Origin: an uncultured Candidatus Saccharibacteria bacterium
Lineage (GTDB): Bacteria; Patescibacteriota; Minisyncoccia; UBA6257; 2-01-FULL-56-20
Assembly: GCA_964361095.1 (NCBI GenBank)
Contig: CAYHZA010000001.1
Location: forward strand, 1,456-65,455
Reading direction: 5' to 3'
Length of the DNA stretch: 64,000 bases
The translations under genes and the position numbers were made by a program. Below are positions 1,284 through 56,607 of the stretch, one piece after another. Under the pieces are notes generated by a model. It was not told the origin of the DNA, did no database searches, and saw only the letters and a list, made by a program, of their open reading frames with translations. Position 1 is the stretch's first letter. The number at the start of each line of letters is the position of its first letter.

Positions 1284-3095
1284 ATGGGAAAGCTAAAAGA
1301 CATTCCAAAAATTGATAGACCGCGCGAACGATTCCTCCAAAAAGGAGCTGACGCACTTTCAAAAAGTGATCTTTTGGCAATTCTTTTAGGCAGTGGCATA
1401 AAAGGTAAAAATGTCAGGGAACTTTCAGAGAGTATTATCAAAAAATTTGGCAAAAACTTTTTAAATATAACCGTTGATGATCTTTTGGAAATTTCAGGGA
1501 TTGGCCAAGCCAAGGCATTACAAATTACTTCTGCAATTTCTTTGGTAAAAAGATTCTATGCGGACGAAAAATCAAACGAGACTATTATTAAAAATTCTCA
1601 AGATGTCCTATCATTCACCTACGATTTAAGAGATAAGAAAAAAGAACACTTGGTTTGTTTATACCTTAACGCAAGAAATTCTCTCCTCAAAAAGGAAATT
1701 GTTAGCGTAGGCTTACTAGATAAAACATTGCTCCATCCAAGAGAAATTTTTTATCCGGCAACAGAATTAAACGCCGCTAGTGTTATTTTAATTCACAACC
1801 ACCCATCGGGCGATTCTTCGCCAAGCGAAAAAGATAATCAAATTGTTGAAAAAATAGTTCAAGCAGGAGAAATAATGGGAATACCTGTTATTGATTTCAT
1901 TATTATCTCCGAAAATAATCATTATAGTTTTTATGAAAAACTAAGAAAGCAAAAAGAGACTTTTGATTATGTCGCTGACGGAATACAAGGGACACTCTTT
2001 GCAATATTTGAAGCTGAAAAACCAGCCTATGAAATAACTGCTGAAAAAATTCAAGAAAATTATTTCTACATCCCACAAGTAAAAGAAAATCACATCCAAT
2101 TACATAATCGCAGATATATAGGAAATAAACACAAACTAATTGAATGGATTTTTTCTATTATAAACAAAGAATGTAGTGGAAATTCTTTTGCAGATGTTTT
2201 TGCTGGGACGGGGGCTGTATCTGCTGTGGCGACAAAACACTTTAAAAAAGTATTATTAAATGATTTTTTACATTCCAATTACATAATATACCGTGCCTTT
2301 TTTGGAAAAGAAGCGTGGGACAAAAATAAGATAGATAGCATTATTAAGAGCTATAATAATATTTATGGCGGAGATTTAGAAGATAATTATTTTTCCAAAA
2401 ACTTTGGCGGTAAATTTTTCAGCAATAATTCAGCTAAAATTATCGGCTTTATTAGGGAAAACATTGAAGAAAACAAAAACAATTTAACGGAAAGAGAATA
2501 TTTTATGCTGATTGCGTCATTGCTTTATACGGCTGATAAAATCGCTAATACCGTTGGACATTTTGATGCTTATTTTAAAAAAGATTTTGTAAATGATAGT
2601 TTTTTCATGAAACCGATTGATCCGATTGATACCCAAGAAATATCTATTTTTCAAGAAGACACGAATGTTCTGGCAAAAAAGATAAAAGCAGATGTGGTTT
2701 ATATTGATCCGCCCTATAATTCCAGACAATACAGTCGTTTTTATCATGTACTTGAAACATTGACCAAATGGGATAAGCCAAAACTTTATGGAGTTGCGCT
2801 AAAACCAGATCCAGAAAATATGAGCGATTACTGCCGAGCTAATGCCAAAGAAAAATTTGCAGAACTTGTGAGAGATATTGATGCTCAATTTTTGGTTGTT
2901 TCGTATAATAATACATACGATTCAAAAAGTAATTCATCAAAAAATAAAATCACACTTCAAGAAATTGAAAAAATCTTACAAGCAAAAGGTAAAACGAAAG
3001 TTTTTGAAAAAAATTACAGACATTTTAATGCCGGTAATACAAATTTCAATAATCACAAAGAGTATTTGTTCGTAACTAAAAACCAACATGAATAA
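1284..3095 (+). CDS. Fusion protein: N-terminal RadC/JAB (JAMM) domain plus C-terminal Dam-like (D12 class) N6-adenine DNA methyltransferase
   Basis: RadC motifs include the HNHPSGDSSPSEKD JAMM signature and the helix-hairpin-helix-like ISGIGQAKA. The methyltransferase half has RRYIGNKHKL (Dam N-terminal motif), FAGTGAVS (motif I) and DPPY (motif IV). It is one continuous 603-aa ORF. Confidence 0.7.
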   Translation: MGKLKDIPKIDRPRERFLQKGADALSKSDLLAILLGSGIKGKNVRELSESIIKKFGKNFLNITVDDLLEISGIGQAKALQITSAISLVKRFYADEKSNETIIKNSQDVLSFTYDLRDKKKEHLVCLYLNARNSLLKKEIVSVGLLDKTLLHPREIFYPATELNAASVILIHNHPSGDSSPSEKDNQIVEKIVQAGEIMGIPVIDFIIISENNHYSFYEKLRKQKETFDYVADGIQGTLFAIFEAEKPAYEITAEKIQENYFYIPQVKENHIQLHNRRYIGNKHKLIEWIFSIINKECSGNSFADVFAGTGAVSAVATKHFKKVLLNDFLHSNYIIYRAFFGKEAWDKNKIDSIIKSYNNIYGGDLEDNYFSKNFGGKFFSNNSAKIIGFIRENIEENKNNLTEREYFMLIASLLYTADKIANTVGHFDAYFKKDFVNDSFFMKPIDPIDTQEISIFQEDTNVLAKKIKADVVYIDPPYNSRQYSRFYHVLETLTKWDKPKLYGVALKPDPENMSDYCRANAKEKFAELVRDIDAQFLVVSYNNTYDSKSNSSKNKITLQEIEKILQAKGKTKVFEKNYRHFNAGNTNFNNHKEYLFVTKNQHE

Positions 3096-53676: not shown

Positions 53677-53814
53677 CCCCCACACCTAAATGAAATAATT
53701 ATCATCTCGAAGTTCTTGCTTCATCCCGCATCTTAAGAAGTTCGGAAGAACATAGACCTAATCTCAAGGCGGAAAGAGCGTGGTGAGCTTCGCAATTTCA
53801 TTTAGGTGTGGGGG
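53677..53814. mobile_element. MITE-like miniature copy of the CCCCCACACC element: perfect 19-bp terminal inverted repeats (cccccacacctaaatgaaa / tttcatttaggtgtggggg) around ~100 bp with no ORF
   Basis: The inverted repeats match the transketolase-associated GIY-YIG element subtype (cctaa). The interior carries its own small inverted repeat. Confidence 0.7.
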
Positions 53815-53953
53815 CGAGTCGACCTTTCTTTGGATGATATACGTATCATTGTATCATTTTGAAACCAGGAAACAAACGCGCGGAATACTTTGAAAATAGA
53901 AAGAAAAACCGCGGCATGTGATGTGCCGCGGGGAAAATAGAGGGAATCGTGAA

Positions 53954-54283
53954 TCATCGATGCGCAGTGGCGGTTTTTGTCTTCTCGATTTGGCTTTCGA
54001 TCTCTCGCCATGTGTCCGACGAGCGGTTTCGCACATCTTCGAGTTTTCCGCGTCCTCTTCGCCGGTAGAGGATGAAGCAGAGCTGGCGGCTTTCCTTGAT
54101 GAAAGTTGCTTCTTCGTGGGCGTGGAGTTGGATTACCAACGGATTTCTTCCGCCCGTGGTGCGAAGCACCTCAAAGCAATTCTCATCCACATCTCCACGG
54201 TGTCTCAAAAAGTCGACGATAGCTTCATTCGTTGCTTGATTCCTCGGTTCGACGTACCAGCGGGTTTCCTCATCTTTCGCCAC
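53954..54283 (-). CDS. Hypothetical protein (GTG start)
   Basis: 109 aa. RBS gaggag 8 nt upstream of GTG. Confidence 0.3.
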   Translation of the reverse strand: MAKDEETRWYVEPRNQATNEAIVDFLRHRGDVDENCFEVLRTTGGRNPLVIQLHAHEEATFIKESRQLCFILYRRRGRGKLEDVRNRSSDTWREIESQIEKTKTATAHR

Positions 54284-54390
54284 GATTATTCTCCTCTCGA
54301 GAGAAAAGTTTTTATACGTTGTGCTGACAATAGGGGAGCTATTATTGATACTAAAGAAAAGAGAGTTTTTTGTAAATTACCTGCTTTTCC

Positions 54391-54480
54391 CACCCAAAGC
54401 GGAAGGTGGATGCCCCGCCCATGGCGGGATTGCTGTTTTCTAAATTCGCTTTGCTTATTAAGAAAACAGGGAAGATTCTT
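54391..54480. repeat. Degenerate duplicate of the tRNA-Ser flanking region with the tRNA body deleted
   Basis: cccaaagcggaaggtgga ... tgctgttttctaa...ttaagaaaacaggga parallels 54613-54640 and 54725-54775. Confidence 0.5.
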
Positions 54481-54540
54481 CCCGTTCGGTACAAATCTTT
54501 GATTTGTTAACCGAACGCAATCCCGCTTCGCGGGAGAACC

Positions 54541-54600
54541 TCTACCGATTTTCCCGAACATTGCGGTAGGGGTGAGATTCGAACTCACGATACCATTTCT
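54541..54600 (-). other. tRNA 3'-half-like fragment (stem-loop plus T-arm GTGAG-TTCGAAT-CTCAC plus acceptor-3'-like strand) lacking a 5' half
   Basis: Minus-strand read ...CTATACCAGAAATGGTATCGTGAGTTCGAATCTCACCCCTACCGC. No D-arm or 5' acceptor strand is found. Confidence 0.4.
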
Positions 54601-54626
54601 GGTATAGCAGTTTTCCCCGCCCAAAG

Positions 54627-54713
54627 CGGAAGGTGGAGGATTCGAACCTCCGAAGCTGTTTCCAGCTTACCGCATTTCAAGTGCGGCGCATTCGTCCACT
54701 CTGCCAACCTTCC
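54627..54713 (-). tRNA. tRNA-Ser (anticodon TGA), type II with long variable arm
   Basis: GGAAGGT acceptor stem, 3-bp D-stem, anticodon loop CTTGAAA, variable hairpin, T-arm GGAGG-TTCGAAT-CCTCC, discriminator G. 12-bp leader/trailer complementarity. Confidence 0.85.
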
Positions 54714-54958
54714 GCTTTGGGCGGGACTGCTTTTTTCTAAGCTCATCTTATTCGCTAAGAAAACAGGGAGCAAGACTGCCGCCTTCAACCCTTGCCCGCC
54801 AAAACTTTGGCGTCGGCGGGACTCGGCCACCCCACCCGCTTGCTTTATTGTTAGTGAAAAATAAGAAAATTACAAATTCCGAGGGTGGCATGGAATGAAG
54901 CTCCGATGCTTCGATCGGAGCACAAAAAAAACCCTGAGTATTCGGGGTTTTCTTTTTG

Positions 54959-55029
54959 TGGACCTACGGGGAATCGAACCCCGATATCACGCATGCCATG
55001 CGTGCGCTTTACCACTAAGCTATAGGCCC
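54959..55029 (-). tRNA. tRNA-Ala (anticodon GGC)
   Basis: GGGCCTA acceptor with the G3:U70 identity pair. Anticodon loop ATGGCAT. T-arm CGGGG-TTCGATT-CCCCG. Upstream promoter TTGCAA-17-TACTAT. Downstream terminator. Confidence 0.85.
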
Positions 55030-55151
55030 AAAGCATTTATATAGTATCTAAACAAAGTTTTTCTTGCAACAAATCTTCCAGGTATCAGCTTTAAGGTGGA
55101 GATGGATAGTAGCTATCGCTCTAGGACGATTAGGTATGTTATAATATTTCT

Positions 55152-55775
55152 ATGAGAAAGTTGGCGGCTGGAACAGTTTCGAAAATTAAGACGTTTCGGA
55201 GGCACGGGTTTAGCATTCCAGAAATCAGCAGGAAACTTCTTATCCCTAAGTCTACAGTATTCCGTTATATCCAGGGCGTAGCGATCGCCCCGGAATATTA
55301 TCAACGCTGGCAAGATCGTAGAAACGCGAGCAAAATCATCTCGTTGCGTAATTGGCAGATTGCCGAAAAGAATGCGAAAGAAATGTTGCCCCGCATCACA
55401 AAAAGAGAAATGGCGATTATGGGGGCAATGTTATACTGGGGCGAGGGATCAAAAGGAGACTTTAGTTTTTCCAATACCGATCCCCAAATGATAAGATTTT
55501 TTCTGAAAATCCTTCGAAGTGCATTTGGAATAAAAGATTCCGAAATAAAAGTTTCTTTAAGAATCTATGAAGATCTCGATCGAAAAAAATGCTTAAAGTT
55601 TTGGTCAAAAACAACCCGCATTAAATTAGACTCTACAACTTCAATCAACGTACTGAAGGGTTCTAAGAAAGGAAAACTAAAATACGGCATGTGCAGAATC
55701 CGAGTTCGAAAGTCGGGGTTGCTTTTGAAACAAATTTTGTCCATTATAAAGTTGCTTGCCGAGACGCCCTCGTAG
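55152..55775 (+). CDS. HTH plus LAGLIDADG-like (single-motif) homing-endonuclease-like protein
   Basis: N-terminal HTH FSIPEISRKLLIPKSTVFRYIQG. Core AIMGAMLYWGEGSKGDFSFSNTD...IRFFLKILRSAFGIK resembles the LAGLIDADG helix-strand pattern (LxxGxGDG variant). The stop codon overlaps the first nucleotides of tRNA-Arg. Confidence 0.45.
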   Translation: MRKLAAGTVSKIKTFRRHGFSIPEISRKLLIPKSTVFRYIQGVAIAPEYYQRWQDRRNASKIISLRNWQIAEKNAKEMLPRITKREMAIMGAMLYWGEGSKGDFSFSNTDPQMIRFFLKILRSAFGIKDSEIKVSLRIYEDLDRKKCLKFWSKTTRIKLDSTTSINVLKGSKKGKLKYGMCRIRVRKSGLLLKQILSIIKLLAETPS

Positions 55776-55840
55776 TTCAATGGATAGAACGGCCCTCTCC
55801 TAAGGGGCAAATGACTGTTCGATTCAGTCCGGGGGCACCA
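55766..55840 (+). tRNA. tRNA-Arg (anticodon CCT), CCA encoded
   Basis: Acceptor GCCCTCG/CGGGGGC. D-stem GTTC/GAAC. Anticodon loop CTCCTAA. T-arm GACTG-TTCGATT-CAGTC. Confidence 0.85.
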
Positions 55841-55971
55841 GAAAGGAAGTATGATAGAATTACTATAAGAGCCGCACCGATAAAAACTGCCAAAGAACCT
55901 GTTAAAAACATCGGCTCGAACCATATTTTAATTTTGGGGGAAGAAAATTTTTTAATCATAAAGTTCATAAG

Positions 55972-56406
55972 ATGTCAGATGATATTCCACAATTTGGTAC
56001 AAAACCAGAAAAAGAATATAAAGATAGACTTAGTGCTTACGCGGTTGTTTTTAATGACGACGGGAAACTTCTAACTCTAATAGTTGGAACAACATTTCAT
56101 CTTCCAGGGGGAGGCATTGATTTGGGCGAAGACCCGCAGGAGGCTGTAGTGCGCGAAGCGCAAGAAGAAGCTGGTTGTAAGATTACAGATTTACAATACA
56201 TTGGAAAGGCTAATCAGTTTTTTCTAAATACTGATATGGGCCCGTTAAACAAACTCGGAATTTTTTTCAAAGCACGAATGATTCACATAGATTCAACAAA
56301 AGGAGTTGAGGCTGATCACAAAATTTCCTGGCTTACTCCAGAAGAATTTTTTTATTCGTCATCTAGTGAATTTCAAAAGTGGGCGTTGAAGAAAGCTTTA
56401 GAGTAG
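55972..56406 (+). CDS. NUDIX hydrolase
   Basis: Nudix box GGGIDLGEDPQEAVVREAQEEAG. Confidence 0.75.
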   Translation: MSDDIPQFGTKPEKEYKDRLSAYAVVFNDDGKLLTLIVGTTFHLPGGGIDLGEDPQEAVVREAQEEAGCKITDLQYIGKANQFFLNTDMGPLNKLGIFFKARMIHIDSTKGVEADHKISWLTPEEFFYSSSSEFQKWALKKALE

Positions 56407-56607
56407 CAAATAGTGTTTCTTATTTACTAAAACTATGTAAGAGTAAAGCAAAGAAAGATCAGAAATTCTCACCAAGTATTGACTTTTTCCATTGAATATA
56501 GCAATCTAACTGCATCTTAGAGAAATGGTTCTTTAAGATGCTCTTTGAATTTTGAAGAACAGGGGATTCTACAAACCGGGTTCACCCCATTACCTGGAGG
56601 GATCTCT

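Follow-up and report, generated by a model that had tools for sequence, protein, structure and literature searches.

The locus considered here raises the question of what kind of gene lies wedged between a tRNA-Ala gene and a tRNA-Arg gene and ends inside the latter, as its TAG stop at 55773-55775, read directly from the sequence, is formed by nucleotides 8-10 of tRNA-Arg. The initial annotation of the window (the whole stretch of DNA analysed, 64 kb in length, from the Hainich groundwater metagenomes) had regarded it as a free-standing, mobile or domesticated homing-endonuclease-like gene, whose product combines an N-terminal HTH with a LAGLIDADG-like core. The ORF is a real gene, as its homologues are numerous and of uniform length, and dN/dS is only 0.03-0.15 in close pairs (protein lengths 204-218 aa). 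There are 217 homologues of the 207-aa protein at E<=1e-3, with the best non-identical matches reaching 1e-74 (56-63% identity); of the full-length members listed, almost all measure about 205-220 aa. The gene family is under purifying selection. It is also large: in a library of 50%-identity representatives, 121 clusters match at E<1e-30, and 2645 when the limit is relaxed to E<1e-10. Neither Pfam nor PHROG annotates its nuclease-like domain, and the "hypothetical protein" recurring beside tRNA-Arg(CCU) in CPR genomes is explained. The features of the locus are collected in Table 1.

Table 1. Coordinates, strand and basis of the features at the locus (window positions)
Feature	Position	Strand	Basis or remark
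tRNA-Ala(GGC)	54958-55029	-	ARAGORN; Rfam tRNA score 67.5 bits
Decayed relic of tRNA-Arg(CCU) 5' half, D-loop to anticodon region, ATGGATAGTAGCTATCGCTCTAG	55102..55124	+	May reach upstream to ~55084
Extended -10 element of promoter, TGTTATAAT; ATG follows after 6 nt	55137..55145	+	Read from sequence; function inferred
ORF, 207 aa, HTH + single LAGLIDADG-like domain	55152..55775	+	ATG start; putative free-standing homing endonuclease
N-terminal three-helix HTH DNA-binding domain, residues 6-40	55167..55271	+	Pfam, PDB profile matches, structure model
Long helix after HTH, residues 47-78	55290-55385	+	Structure model
LAGLIDADG-like domain, residues 84-204	55401..55763	+	Topology alpha-beta-alpha-beta-alpha-beta-beta-alpha
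Motif LYWGEGSK, residues 94-101	55431..55454	+	Invariance across family; I-DmoI alignment
E98	55443-55445	+	Putative catalytic pair with K101 (inferred)
K101	55452-55454	+	Putative catalytic pair with E98 (inferred)
Promoter-like TTGAAA-16-TAAAGT in ORF 3' end	55725..55752	+	Consensus scan
Intact tRNA-Arg(CCU), CCA encoded	55766..55840	+	ARAGORN (anticodon CCT); Rfam 62 bits

The N-terminal region is matched by the Pfam models HTH_23, HTH_38, HTH_7 and HTH_SB in 15-33 of 38 family members, and its PDB profile matches are the PAI subdomain of Sleeping Beauty and a CRISPR-repeat-binding HTH, while the structure model places helices at residues 6-17, 22-29, 33-40 and 47-78. The best conserved stretch of the family, AIMGAMLYWGEGSKGDFSFSN, belongs to the second domain. 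Residues L94, Y95, W96, E98, G99, K101 and N108 are invariant both in the 38 CPR members and in a set of 48 CPR and viral-contig members, as is the motif LYW[AG]EGxK, which satisfies the criterion of a LAGLIDADG motif ending in an acidic residue followed by G. Single-sequence searches of Pfam, NCBIfam and PDB gave only weak HTH matches, and HTH matches also dominated the search of PDB with a full-length profile. The profile that worked was one of the C-terminal domain, from which the HTH had been cut away and to which viral-contig relatives had been added: against 177,635 PDB sequences its sole match was I-DmoI (variants; E 1.6e-4), in an alignment that covers I-DmoI residues 104-147 and lays LYWgEGsK onto the second motif of that enzyme, GLYVAEGDK. 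E98 and K101 are taken here to be the counterparts of I-DmoI E117 and K120, with a likewise catalytic role.

The predicted topology has a helix in place of the canonical beta1-beta2 hairpin. The superfamily is defined by an alpha/beta core whose motif helix packs at a two-fold interface and whose beta-sheet forms a saddle for DNA, and the protein is judged to satisfy this criterion, dimerisation being inferred. Resemblance to the LAGLIDADG fold together with the conserved motif is established; DNA cleavage, dimerisation and the exact target are inferences, and there is no biochemical evidence of cleavage. The curated LAGLIDADG models of Pfam (PF00961, PF03161 and PF14528) matched neither the window protein nor the 38 family members nor seven relatives from viral contigs, although thresholds were as lax as E<=1 to 10, and no LAGLIDADG model was matched in NCBIfam or PHROG searches. 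Foldseek against PDB and BFVD returned no significant match, only similarity at the level of the HTH. As for the initial annotation, the ORF between tRNA-Ala and tRNA-Arg with the peptide quoted there and the stop at tRNA nucleotides 8-10 held exactly, and the N-terminal HTH held with Pfam support across the family. The LAGLIDADG-like core is supported by the I-DmoI profile match, with nuclease activity remaining inferred; of the two checks proposed for it, a search of the LAGLIDADG_1/2/3 families matched no Pfam model, and structure prediction gave a LAGLIDADG-like topology that Foldseek could not match significantly.

Among known enzymes, the family resembles the single-motif LAGLIDADG enzymes (I-CreI and I-ShaI, the latter from a CPR rRNA intron) and the C-terminal domain of I-DmoI, as the motif helix ends in an acidic residue and Gly. 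As in I-CreI and I-ShaI, there is one domain per chain, a homodimer is implied and a conserved RNA gene would be the target; I-ShaI has been shown to be a homodimer, and CPR enzymes with a single LAGLIDADG domain act as homodimeric nucleases (PMC11270868). Unlike all three, the window family has no Pfam LAGLIDADG_1/2/3 match; an HTH is added at the N-terminus, a long helix serves as linker, and a helix stands in for part of the first hairpin. The gene lies in neither an intron nor an intein, and its activity is only inferred. In WhiA (DUF199), a domesticated transcription factor, a LAGLIDADG fold is likewise joined to an HTH. Each WhiA chain contains two LAGLIDADG domains, its HTH is C-terminal and the catalytic acidic residues are missing, whereas the window protein has one domain, an N-terminal HTH and the invariant E-G-x-K. 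Neither the window protein nor the family members gave a Pfam WhiA match, and the protein does not qualify as a member of WhiA/DUF199.

The position of the gene is a property of the family rather than of this genome. In 80 of 81 CPR loci a tRNA-Arg(CCT) gene lies directly 3' of the ORF on the same strand, with a gap of -102 to +35 nt (modes -10 in 26 loci and -38/-39 in 19 loci), and the ORF stop falls inside the tRNA in 59 of the 80. Adjacency to tRNA-Arg(CCU), including the stop-codon overlap, is therefore a family-wide rule in CPR, and gene calls with C-termini that are translated tRNA are accounted for by it. A "tRNA-Pyl(CTA)" in L010 was rejected as an exception, being a CCT tRNA with C33. 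Nucleotides 8-10 of the window's tRNA-Arg double as the ORF stop, and this tRNA, linked to the putative endonuclease gene, is likely the functional copy, as inferred from sequence alone. An Rfam search at E<=10 over 54500-56500 gave the tRNAs and chance hits only, with no group I intron or other RNA family. The gene is hence free-standing, and a group I intron-encoded endonuclease can be discounted, as the search found no ribozyme and the downstream tRNA is complete.

The overlap with the tRNA could also indicate a role at the RNA level, in which a maturase-like, LAGLIDADG-derived protein would bind the co-transcribed mRNA-pre-tRNA-Arg and aid or regulate 5' processing or stability of tRNA-Arg(CCU). 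Some LAGLIDADG proteins are RNA maturases. Contiguity or overlap of ORF and tRNA in 59/80 loci makes co-transcription likely, and an RNase P cut is inferred to strip the stop codon where the arrangement is that of the window. This explanation is nevertheless very unlikely, as the same tRNA occurs without the gene in many CPR genomes, the HTH at the N-terminus belongs to the DNA-binding kind known from transposases and resolvases, the Rfam search detected no structured RNA besides tRNA, and known maturases act on introns, none of which is present at the locus.

Upstream of the ORF lies the second diagnostic feature, the decayed 5' half of another tRNA-Arg(CCU). The sequence ATGGATAG has only two plus-strand copies in the 64-kb window, namely the relic and the D-loop of the intact tRNA-Arg (55780). 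The relic of the window is weak when taken alone and was not reported by nhmmer, but an alignment of the upstream regions of 79 loci shows the consensus aaTgGAtAaAg-CaA..tcGTcCTaG at its position, and in other loci nhmmer aligns the block to tRNA-Arg positions 1-36/37. With a tRNA-Arg HMM, 5' halves were found upstream of the ATG in six loci when E<1e-3 was required and in about 13 when E<0.1 was allowed; almost all of these end at model position 35-37, and most lie 33-40 nt ahead of the ATG. CGTCCT or CGTTCT occurs in 20/78 relic windows vs 1/78 control windows. The relic thus ends at nucleotide 36/37, the classical intron site of tRNA-Arg. At one extreme of preservation (L072, L046 and L006) it is a perfect 36-nt tRNA half with a compensated D-stem, at the other it can no longer be recognised, and its sequence differs from that of the linked tRNA, e.g. 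in L006, L055 and L072. L054 and L033 have 3' relics downstream of the intact tRNA, and L017 contains nested relics and a pseudo-tRNA. A reading of the relic and the downstream 3' half as a split tRNA or an intron was rejected, as the linked tRNA is complete; the acceptor and anticodon stems of the relic moreover do not pair with the linked tRNA, e.g. in L072.

Empty alleles are provided by CPR loci of the same synteny that lack the gene, among them L143, where the tRNA order is Ser-, Ala-, Val-, Arg+, Ser+, as well as L190, L099 and L100. Flank alignments show occupied alleles to be 631-690 nt longer, and the relic occupies exactly the position of the resident tRNA in the empty allele. Presence and absence at a defined tRNA-Arg site, with insertion at the presumed target, is accordingly demonstrated between species, though not within populations, and the gene likely marks an insertion into the tRNA gene itself. 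The empty CPR alleles came from a tRNA-Arg(CCT) pattern scan of metagenomes, which was not CPR-specific; 3/120 matches carry the gene, a figure that is no estimate of its frequency. No degraded copies of the homing endonuclease gene (HEG) were found upstream of empty alleles.

Of the remaining claims of the initial annotation, the free-standing nature is supported by the absence of a flanking group I intron or other Rfam family, and mobility by the empty and occupied alleles and the upstream half-tRNA relic, while domestication as a regulator remains possible. The check proposed there for homologues beside tRNAs gave tRNA-Arg(CCU) in 80/81 CPR loci; that this adjacency and the stop overlap are a family rule, and that the insertion is into the tRNA gene itself, had been missed. 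The same evidence bears on a further alternative, that of an ordinary HTH transcription factor whose position at tRNA-Arg and LAGLIDADG-like motif are coincidental. In its favor, Pfam, NCBIfam and PHROGs detect HTH families only, and Foldseek similarity is confined to the HTH. This alternative is all but excluded by the identical gene-tRNA junction in 80/81 loci, the half-tRNA relic, the empty alleles and the I-DmoI profile match.

The best provisional identification of the locus is a homing-endonuclease cassette without an intron, which would invade tRNA-Arg(CCU) at its anticodon loop and bring along a replacement that restores the tRNA, a reading that may equally well prove right or wrong, with cleavage and immunity of the linked tRNA being inferred. 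The plan of the locus in CPR would be the relic of the resident tRNA 5' half (nucleotides 1-36), then promoter and HEG, then a complete tRNA-Arg(CCU). The protein would act as a homodimer, like other single-motif LAGLIDADG enzymes, with a metal bound by E98 and assistance from K101. In a tRNA-Arg(CCU) gene that is still uninterrupted, it would recognise the DNA of the pseudo-palindromic anticodon stem-loop and cut near 36/37, and the break would be repaired from an occupied allele, with the relic as left and the intact tRNA as right homology arm. Some 630-690 nt, containing promoter, HEG and a fresh tRNA 5' half, would be copied in the repair. Replacement, not splicing, would preserve tRNA function, and the displaced resident 5' half would be orphaned and decay. 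As the element would end in the tRNA 5' half, the ORF would read into the tRNA and often stop at U8-A9-G10 (as in the window) or U36-A37-A38.

This cassette has partial precedents. Cyanobacterial tRNA-Arg(CCU) genes contain group I introns at 36/37, some with LAGLIDADG genes (PMC13011429); host gene, insertion point and enzyme superfamily are the same, but the window locus has no ribozyme, its tRNA is restored by a complete downstream DNA copy instead of by splicing, and the cyanobacterial intron genes belong to PF03161, which the window family does not match. Fungal mitochondrial mORFs carry a replacement gene end (atp6 in Allomyces; atp6, atp9, cox2 and nad3 in Glomus; PMC3630166). They too consist of an endonuclease ORF and a duplicated piece of the invaded gene, with the native piece left as a diverging relic and function kept without an intron, and the mORF-type criterion as defined there (a duplicated portion and a diverged native relic) is met by the 5' half relic and the complete tRNA. 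Unlike the window locus, mORFs have protein-coding genes as hosts, of which they replace the 3' (C-terminal) end; in the window locus it is a bacterial tRNA gene that is invaded, the 5' half is replaced and the ORF is followed by the functional copy, so that the polarity is reversed. If the cassette is real, it would represent a third lifestyle for a homing endonuclease in an essential RNA gene, the spare copy, besides introns and inteins, a strategy previously known only for protein genes of fungal mitochondria. A compact 207-aa nuclease with a tRNA-gene target might also interest enzyme engineers.

The most serious rival, which remains possible, is a domesticated LAGLIDADG/HTH protein following the logic of WhiA, i.e. 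an ancient tRNA-Arg(CCU) insertion endonuclease that has lost homing and is now a DNA-binding regulator of the host. It might, for example, repress its own promoter via the relic half-site, or control transcription of tRNA-Arg(CCU) and hence AGG decoding. Protein clusters follow host taxonomy and synteny; dN/dS of 0.03-0.15 and constant length in 79 loci, including those with near-erased relics, would be unusual for a fixed selfish HEG; and the best conserved non-coding block (tRNA positions ~14-37) abuts the -35 region like an operator. I-TevI is a homing endonuclease and an autorepressor at once. The gene is intact and under strong purifying selection even where the relic is almost erased (e.g. 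L002), which suits a domesticated, host-useful gene at least as well as a purely selfish one, if not better. Against domestication, E98 and K101 of the LAGLIDADG motif are invariant in CPR and viral-contig members, whereas WhiA has lost those acidic and lysine residues. Many CPR genomes of the same tRNA synteny lack the gene, which therefore has no core function, relics ranging from perfect to unrecognisable argue for insertions of differing age, and relatives are placed in tRNA arrays of large viral contigs.

For the cassette reading, the anticodon arm offers a hint at target or immunity. The arm CCGTCCTAAGG occurs in 8/14 empty CPR alleles vs 4/81 HEG-linked tRNAs (Fisher p=9e-6), and relics are of the G32 type, like this arm. 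That an altered anticodon stem makes the linked tRNA immune can be inferred as a possibility, resting on a correlation confounded by phylogeny, and the four linked tRNAs bearing the supposedly sensitive arm speak against it. Simple immunity by the loop base G32/C32 was rejected as sufficient, as about 30 linked tRNAs are also G32. The linked tRNA retains an intact 36/37 site in cis, and self-cleavage would need some avoidance.

Outside CPR, 33 distant relatives (22-34% identity) occur on IMG/VR contigs. On these large viral contigs, most of the relatives belong to tRNA arrays, with a tRNA gene no more than ~100 nt away. PHROGs and Pfam detect only the HTH in them, and no half-tRNA relics were found upstream of these relatives. 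The arrangement recalls T4 SegB (PMC2330249), likewise a free-standing nuclease gene wedged among tRNA genes, whose product targets a motif conserved in tRNAs and takes adjacent tRNA genes with it. However, SegB is a GIY-YIG enzyme for which no half-tRNA relic or fixed single tRNA partner has been described, and the window family has no tblastn match in 50,697 GenBank phage records. A bolder version of the cassette reading, against which the balance tips slightly, supposes an undescribed kind of intron-less element: an HTH-LAGLIDADG endonuclease would invade 36/37 with its own replacement 5' half or whole tRNA and would have cycled through CPR for a very long time, the CPR anticodon stems being immunity alleles, while sister lineages shuffle the tRNA arrays of huge phages. 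Were it true, the non-Watson-Crick 31:39 pairs and diverse anticodon stems of CPR tRNA-Arg(CCU) would be nuclease-selected immunity alleles, and sister lineages of an unannotated family would shuffle tRNA genes in huge-phage arrays; nuclease-driven gene conversion is suggested to shape both.

The promoter-like site in the ORF 3' end could possibly drive tRNA-Arg independently; the scan gave one site vs 2.2 expected in shuffles and is not significant alone. The extended -10 element lies so close to the ATG that a leaderless or nearly leaderless mRNA is implied, and the consensus scanner passed over it because it has no -35 match. Autorepression via the relic beside this promoter is an inferred possibility. 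Across the family, a tatTAtaAT block stands shortly ahead of the ATG, and TTGACA-like hexamers follow right after the relic in many loci.

The ORF lies between tRNA-Ala(GGC) and tRNA-Arg(CCU), and its TAG stop, read from the sequence, forms nucleotides 8-10 of tRNA-Arg; both points were claimed in the initial annotation and both held (ORF, ARAGORN, Rfam, sequence). This is a real gene, as a search of 5.8 billion proteins retrieved 217 homologues (best E about 1e-74, identical sequence excluded; nearly all listed full-length members lack a name and have about 205-220 aa), exhaustive searching of 1.84 billion cluster representatives placed 121 clusters below E 1e-30 and 2645 below 1e-10, dN/dS is 0.03-0.15 in close pairs of homologues, and a 115-kb contig recovered from groundwater (0.1-µm fraction) encodes the identical protein. 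Its relatives are spread across the CPR/Patescibacteria, with Giovannoni-, Jorgensen-, Levy-, Davies-, Roizman-, Magasanik-, Berkel-, Azam- and Nomurabacteria as hosts.

Coordinates of features in the window and in four homologue-bearing genome loci (L010, L017, L033 and L054)
Feature	Locus	Coordinates	Strand	Remark
ORF	window	55152-55775	+	207 aa, sequence as quoted in the initial annotation
TAG stop of ORF	window	55773-55775		
tRNA-Ala(GGC)	window	54958-55029	-	ARAGORN and Rfam
tRNA-Arg(CCU)	window	55766-55840	+	ARAGORN and Rfam
Relic ATGGATAGTAGCTATCGCTCTAG	window	55102-55124		weak, in expected place
TGTTATAAT	window	55137-55145		after relic, 6 nt ahead of ATG
63-aa ORF	window	55777-55968	-	
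tRNA-Ser(TGA)	window	54626-54713	-	
Duplicated tRNA-Ser flanks	window	54378-54472 vs 54605-54769		copy without tRNA body
First flank piece	window	54378-54410 vs 54605-54637		85% match
Second flank piece	window	54423-54472 vs 54720-54769		76% match
Overlapping ORFs	window	53800-54900		none convincing
Complex locus	L017	2760-3661		five parts
Short tRNA-like fragment	L017	2760-2790		
Intact tRNA-Arg(CCT)	L017	2792-2864		
Decayed 5' relic	L017	about 2906-2939		
Endonuclease gene (putative)	L017	2974-3627		
Decayed pseudo-tRNA-Arg	L017	3590-3661		uncalled by ARAGORN
Linked tRNA	L010	2853-2926		labelled tRNA-Pyl by ARAGORN
Decayed 3' fragment	L033	3692-3726		
Decayed 3' fragment	L054	3673-3712		

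Many database homologues have C-termini resembling translated tRNA (e.g. ...SPRSSMDRT and ...APVVQWIER), and 80 genome loci were therefore fetched and scanned for tRNAs. In 80/81 loci (those fetched plus the window) tRNA-Arg(CCT) lies directly 3' of the ORF on the same strand. In L017 the linked position holds a decayed pseudo-tRNA-Arg, and the intact tRNA-Arg lies upstream. Spacing between the stop codon and the tRNA start spans -102 to +35 nt, with modes at -10 (26 loci including the window, where the stop is U8-A9-G10) and -38/-39 (19 loci, where it is U36-A37-A38), and the stop falls inside the tRNA in 59 of 80 loci. The overlap with tRNA-Arg is thus a family trait and no local accident. 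The tRNA-Pyl (anticodon CTA) called at L010 was rejected, as its sequence is that of tRNA-Arg(CCT) with the universal U33 replaced by C, a change that displaces the called anticodon.

A recurrent block occurs within 70 nt ahead of the start codons, reading GCCCCCATAGCTCAACTGGATAGAGCAAGTCCGTCCT followed by TGACA... in L006 and GCCCCCATAGTTCAATGGATAGAACAGTTCCGTCCT followed by TGAACA... in L072. When the 200 nt upstream of every ATG were scanned with a tRNA-Arg HMM, six loci matched at E<1e-3 (L072, L046, L006, L055, L050 and L025) and some 13 at E<0.1. The matches almost all end at tRNA position 35-37, in most cases 33-40 nt ahead of the ATG. The MAFFT consensus of 79 upstream regions is aaTgGAtAaAg-CaA..tcGTcCTaG; in many loci a TTGACA-like -35 element abuts the 3' end of this half-tRNA relic, and a tatTAtaAT block stands shortly upstream of the ATG. 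In the window, ATGGATAG is found on the + strand only in the relic and in the tRNA-Arg D-loop. Rather than copying the linked tRNA, the relics diverge from it in the acceptor, D-stem and anticodon stem, with some changes compensatory, and are unable to pair with its 3' half. Decayed 3' fragments of tRNA-Arg, comprising T-arm and acceptor strand, lie 1-10 nt past the intact linked tRNA in L054 and L033; that of L033 begins with the AAG of positions 37-39, and that of L054 is closer to the tRNAs linked in the related loci L028, L034 and L043 than to the one linked in L054 itself. The five-part locus L017 may reflect repeated invasions or replacement of the linked tRNA.

CPR loci without the gene were obtained from a metagenome scan by a tRNA-Arg(CCT) pattern which is not CPR-specific, and were recognised either by tRNA synteny identical to that in occupied loci or by flanking proteins sharing 50-80% identity with theirs. 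Among these empty alleles, L143 has the order Ser(TGA)-, Ala(GGC)-, Val(GAC)-, Arg(CCT)+, Ser(CGA)+, and L190 has Ala(GGC)-, Arg(CCT)+, Ser(CGA)+. Judged from collinear flanks, the insert is 690 nt in occupied L002 (against empty L099), 673 nt in L077 (against L100), and 631, 689 and 681 nt in L059 (against L118, L193 and L115, respectively). In nucleotide alignments of empty and occupied alleles, homology spans the upstream gene and the spacer and continues into the relic, and the relic therefore occupies the position of the resident tRNA of the empty allele. The simplest description is insertion of promoter, ORF and a tRNA 5' half at 36/37, by which a complete tRNA would be regenerated downstream and the resident 5' half orphaned. 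Position 36/37 is the classical group I intron site of tRNA-Arg, and some cyanobacterial introns there carry LAGLIDADG genes (PMC13011429). The present arrangement shares the site with tRNA-Arg(CCU) introns but lacks the ribozyme, as no group I ribozyme is present at the ORF locus. It is similar in architecture to mitochondrial mORFs, which bring a replacement gene end while the native end remains as a relic (PMC3630166), although it has the opposite polarity and a bacterial tRNA gene as its host. The literature searched, with incomplete coverage, describes neither family nor arrangement; novelty is unproven, but this appears to be an undescribed, family-wide way to occupy a tRNA gene, a context lifting the ORF above moderate interest.

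The protein contains a three-helix HTH of transposase/resolvase type (residues 6-40), and no model in Pfam, NCBIfam or PHROG covers the residues outside it. The AlphaFold2 model from 38 homologues is confident (pLDDT 93.6), in the order HTH, long helix (47-78), alpha(84-98)-beta-alpha-beta-alpha-beta-beta-alpha. Structures listed beside it, with values for which no measure is named, are two of WhiA (8.5, 7.5), I-Tsp061I (7.9), E-DreI and I-DmoI (7.3 and 7.2), PI-PfuI (6.7), I-CvuI and I-CeuI (6.6), I-MsoI (6.2) and I-CreI (5.2). Foldseek gave no significant match for the model, which weighs against a LAGLIDADG assignment. A profile restricted to the C-terminal domain and built from CPR and viral-contig members had I-DmoI as its sole match among 177,635 PDB sequences (E 1.6e-4), placing the invariant LYW[AG]EGxK on the second LAGLIDADG motif of I-DmoI (GLYVAEGDK) and also aligning the following strand and helix; E98, G99 and K101 are invariant in 48/48 aligned members. 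In I-DmoI, the motif's Glu and Lys (E117, K120) belong to the active site, and the equivalent acidic residue is lost in WhiA. Because of this alignment and the invariant residues, the domain is identified as a divergent LAGLIDADG domain with its catalytic signature kept, cleavage itself being inferred. The family resembles LAGLIDADG enzymes in fold and motif but lies outside the curated families. By analogy with I-ShaI, a CPR rRNA-intron enzyme shown to be a homodimer (PMC11270868), this single-motif protein would work as a homodimer. The initial annotation's reading of an HTH plus LAGLIDADG-like protein, mobile or domesticated, is supported as an interpretation, nuclease activity being inferred.

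Continuing mobility is favoured by relics ranging from perfect 36-nt halves to almost erased, by the nested relics of L017, by L055, whose relic is of one tRNA type and whose linked tRNA and protein belong to another cluster, and by the commonness of empty alleles. Two findings speak against a purely selfish life: protein clusters mostly track host taxonomy and synteny, and the ORF remains intact, with strong purifying selection acting on it, even next to old relics. The protein is as likely as not to be an active homing endonuclease, with cleavage inferred; it may instead be a domesticated regulator, and autorepression at the relic/promoter would be compatible with either reading, while an RNA-level role is unlikely. 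A problem for the homing-endonuclease reading is that the linked tRNA keeps an intact 36/37 site. As a hint on this point, the arm CCGTCCTAAGG, which is the relic type, occurs in 8/14 empty CPR alleles versus 4/81 linked tRNAs (p=9e-6), and CGTCCT or CGTTCT in 20/78 relic windows versus 1/78 controls; C32-type hexamers are not enriched. A target allele with immune linked alleles could explain this arm distribution, which is confounded by phylogeny and has exceptions. A non-Watson-Crick 31:39 pair is apparent in many CPR tRNA-Arg(CCU) genes, being A31.C39 (CACTCCTAACG) in 20/81 and A31.G39 (GACTCCTAAGC) in 13/81, with the same types at empty CPR sites and Watson-Crick pairs in the checked non-CPR tRNA-Arg(CCU) genes of the metagenome sample. 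Such a pair might mark immunity to the nuclease or be peculiar to the CPR.

Distant relatives (33, at 22-34% identity; 30 nearly full length and three aligned chiefly over the C-terminal domain) were located on IMG/VR contigs 11-527 kb long, which could be huge phages or mis-binned cellular DNA, and no cultured-phage record matched the family. They carry the same LYWxEGxK. Most are embedded in dense tRNA arrays (as many as 23 tRNAs within 5 kb), about 100 nt or less from a tRNA gene, and in several the stop codon falls on tRNA nucleotides 8-10; a search for half-tRNA relics beside them was negative. Similar in lifestyle is T4 SegB, a GIY-YIG enzyme whose gene lies in a tRNA cluster and which recognises a tRNA motif (PMC2330249). 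Some of the IMG/VR relatives are antisense to neighbouring tRNAs, and the contig L210 also has a tmRNA.

Two minor observations concern the window. The 63-aa ORF contains a hydrophobic stretch and its 3' end runs antisense through tRNA-Arg; it may encode a small membrane protein or be spurious. The flanks of tRNA-Ser(TGA) are partly duplicated nearby, the two pieces being 12 nt apart in the copy versus 82 nt around the tRNA, one more scar within the same tRNA cluster as the ORF.
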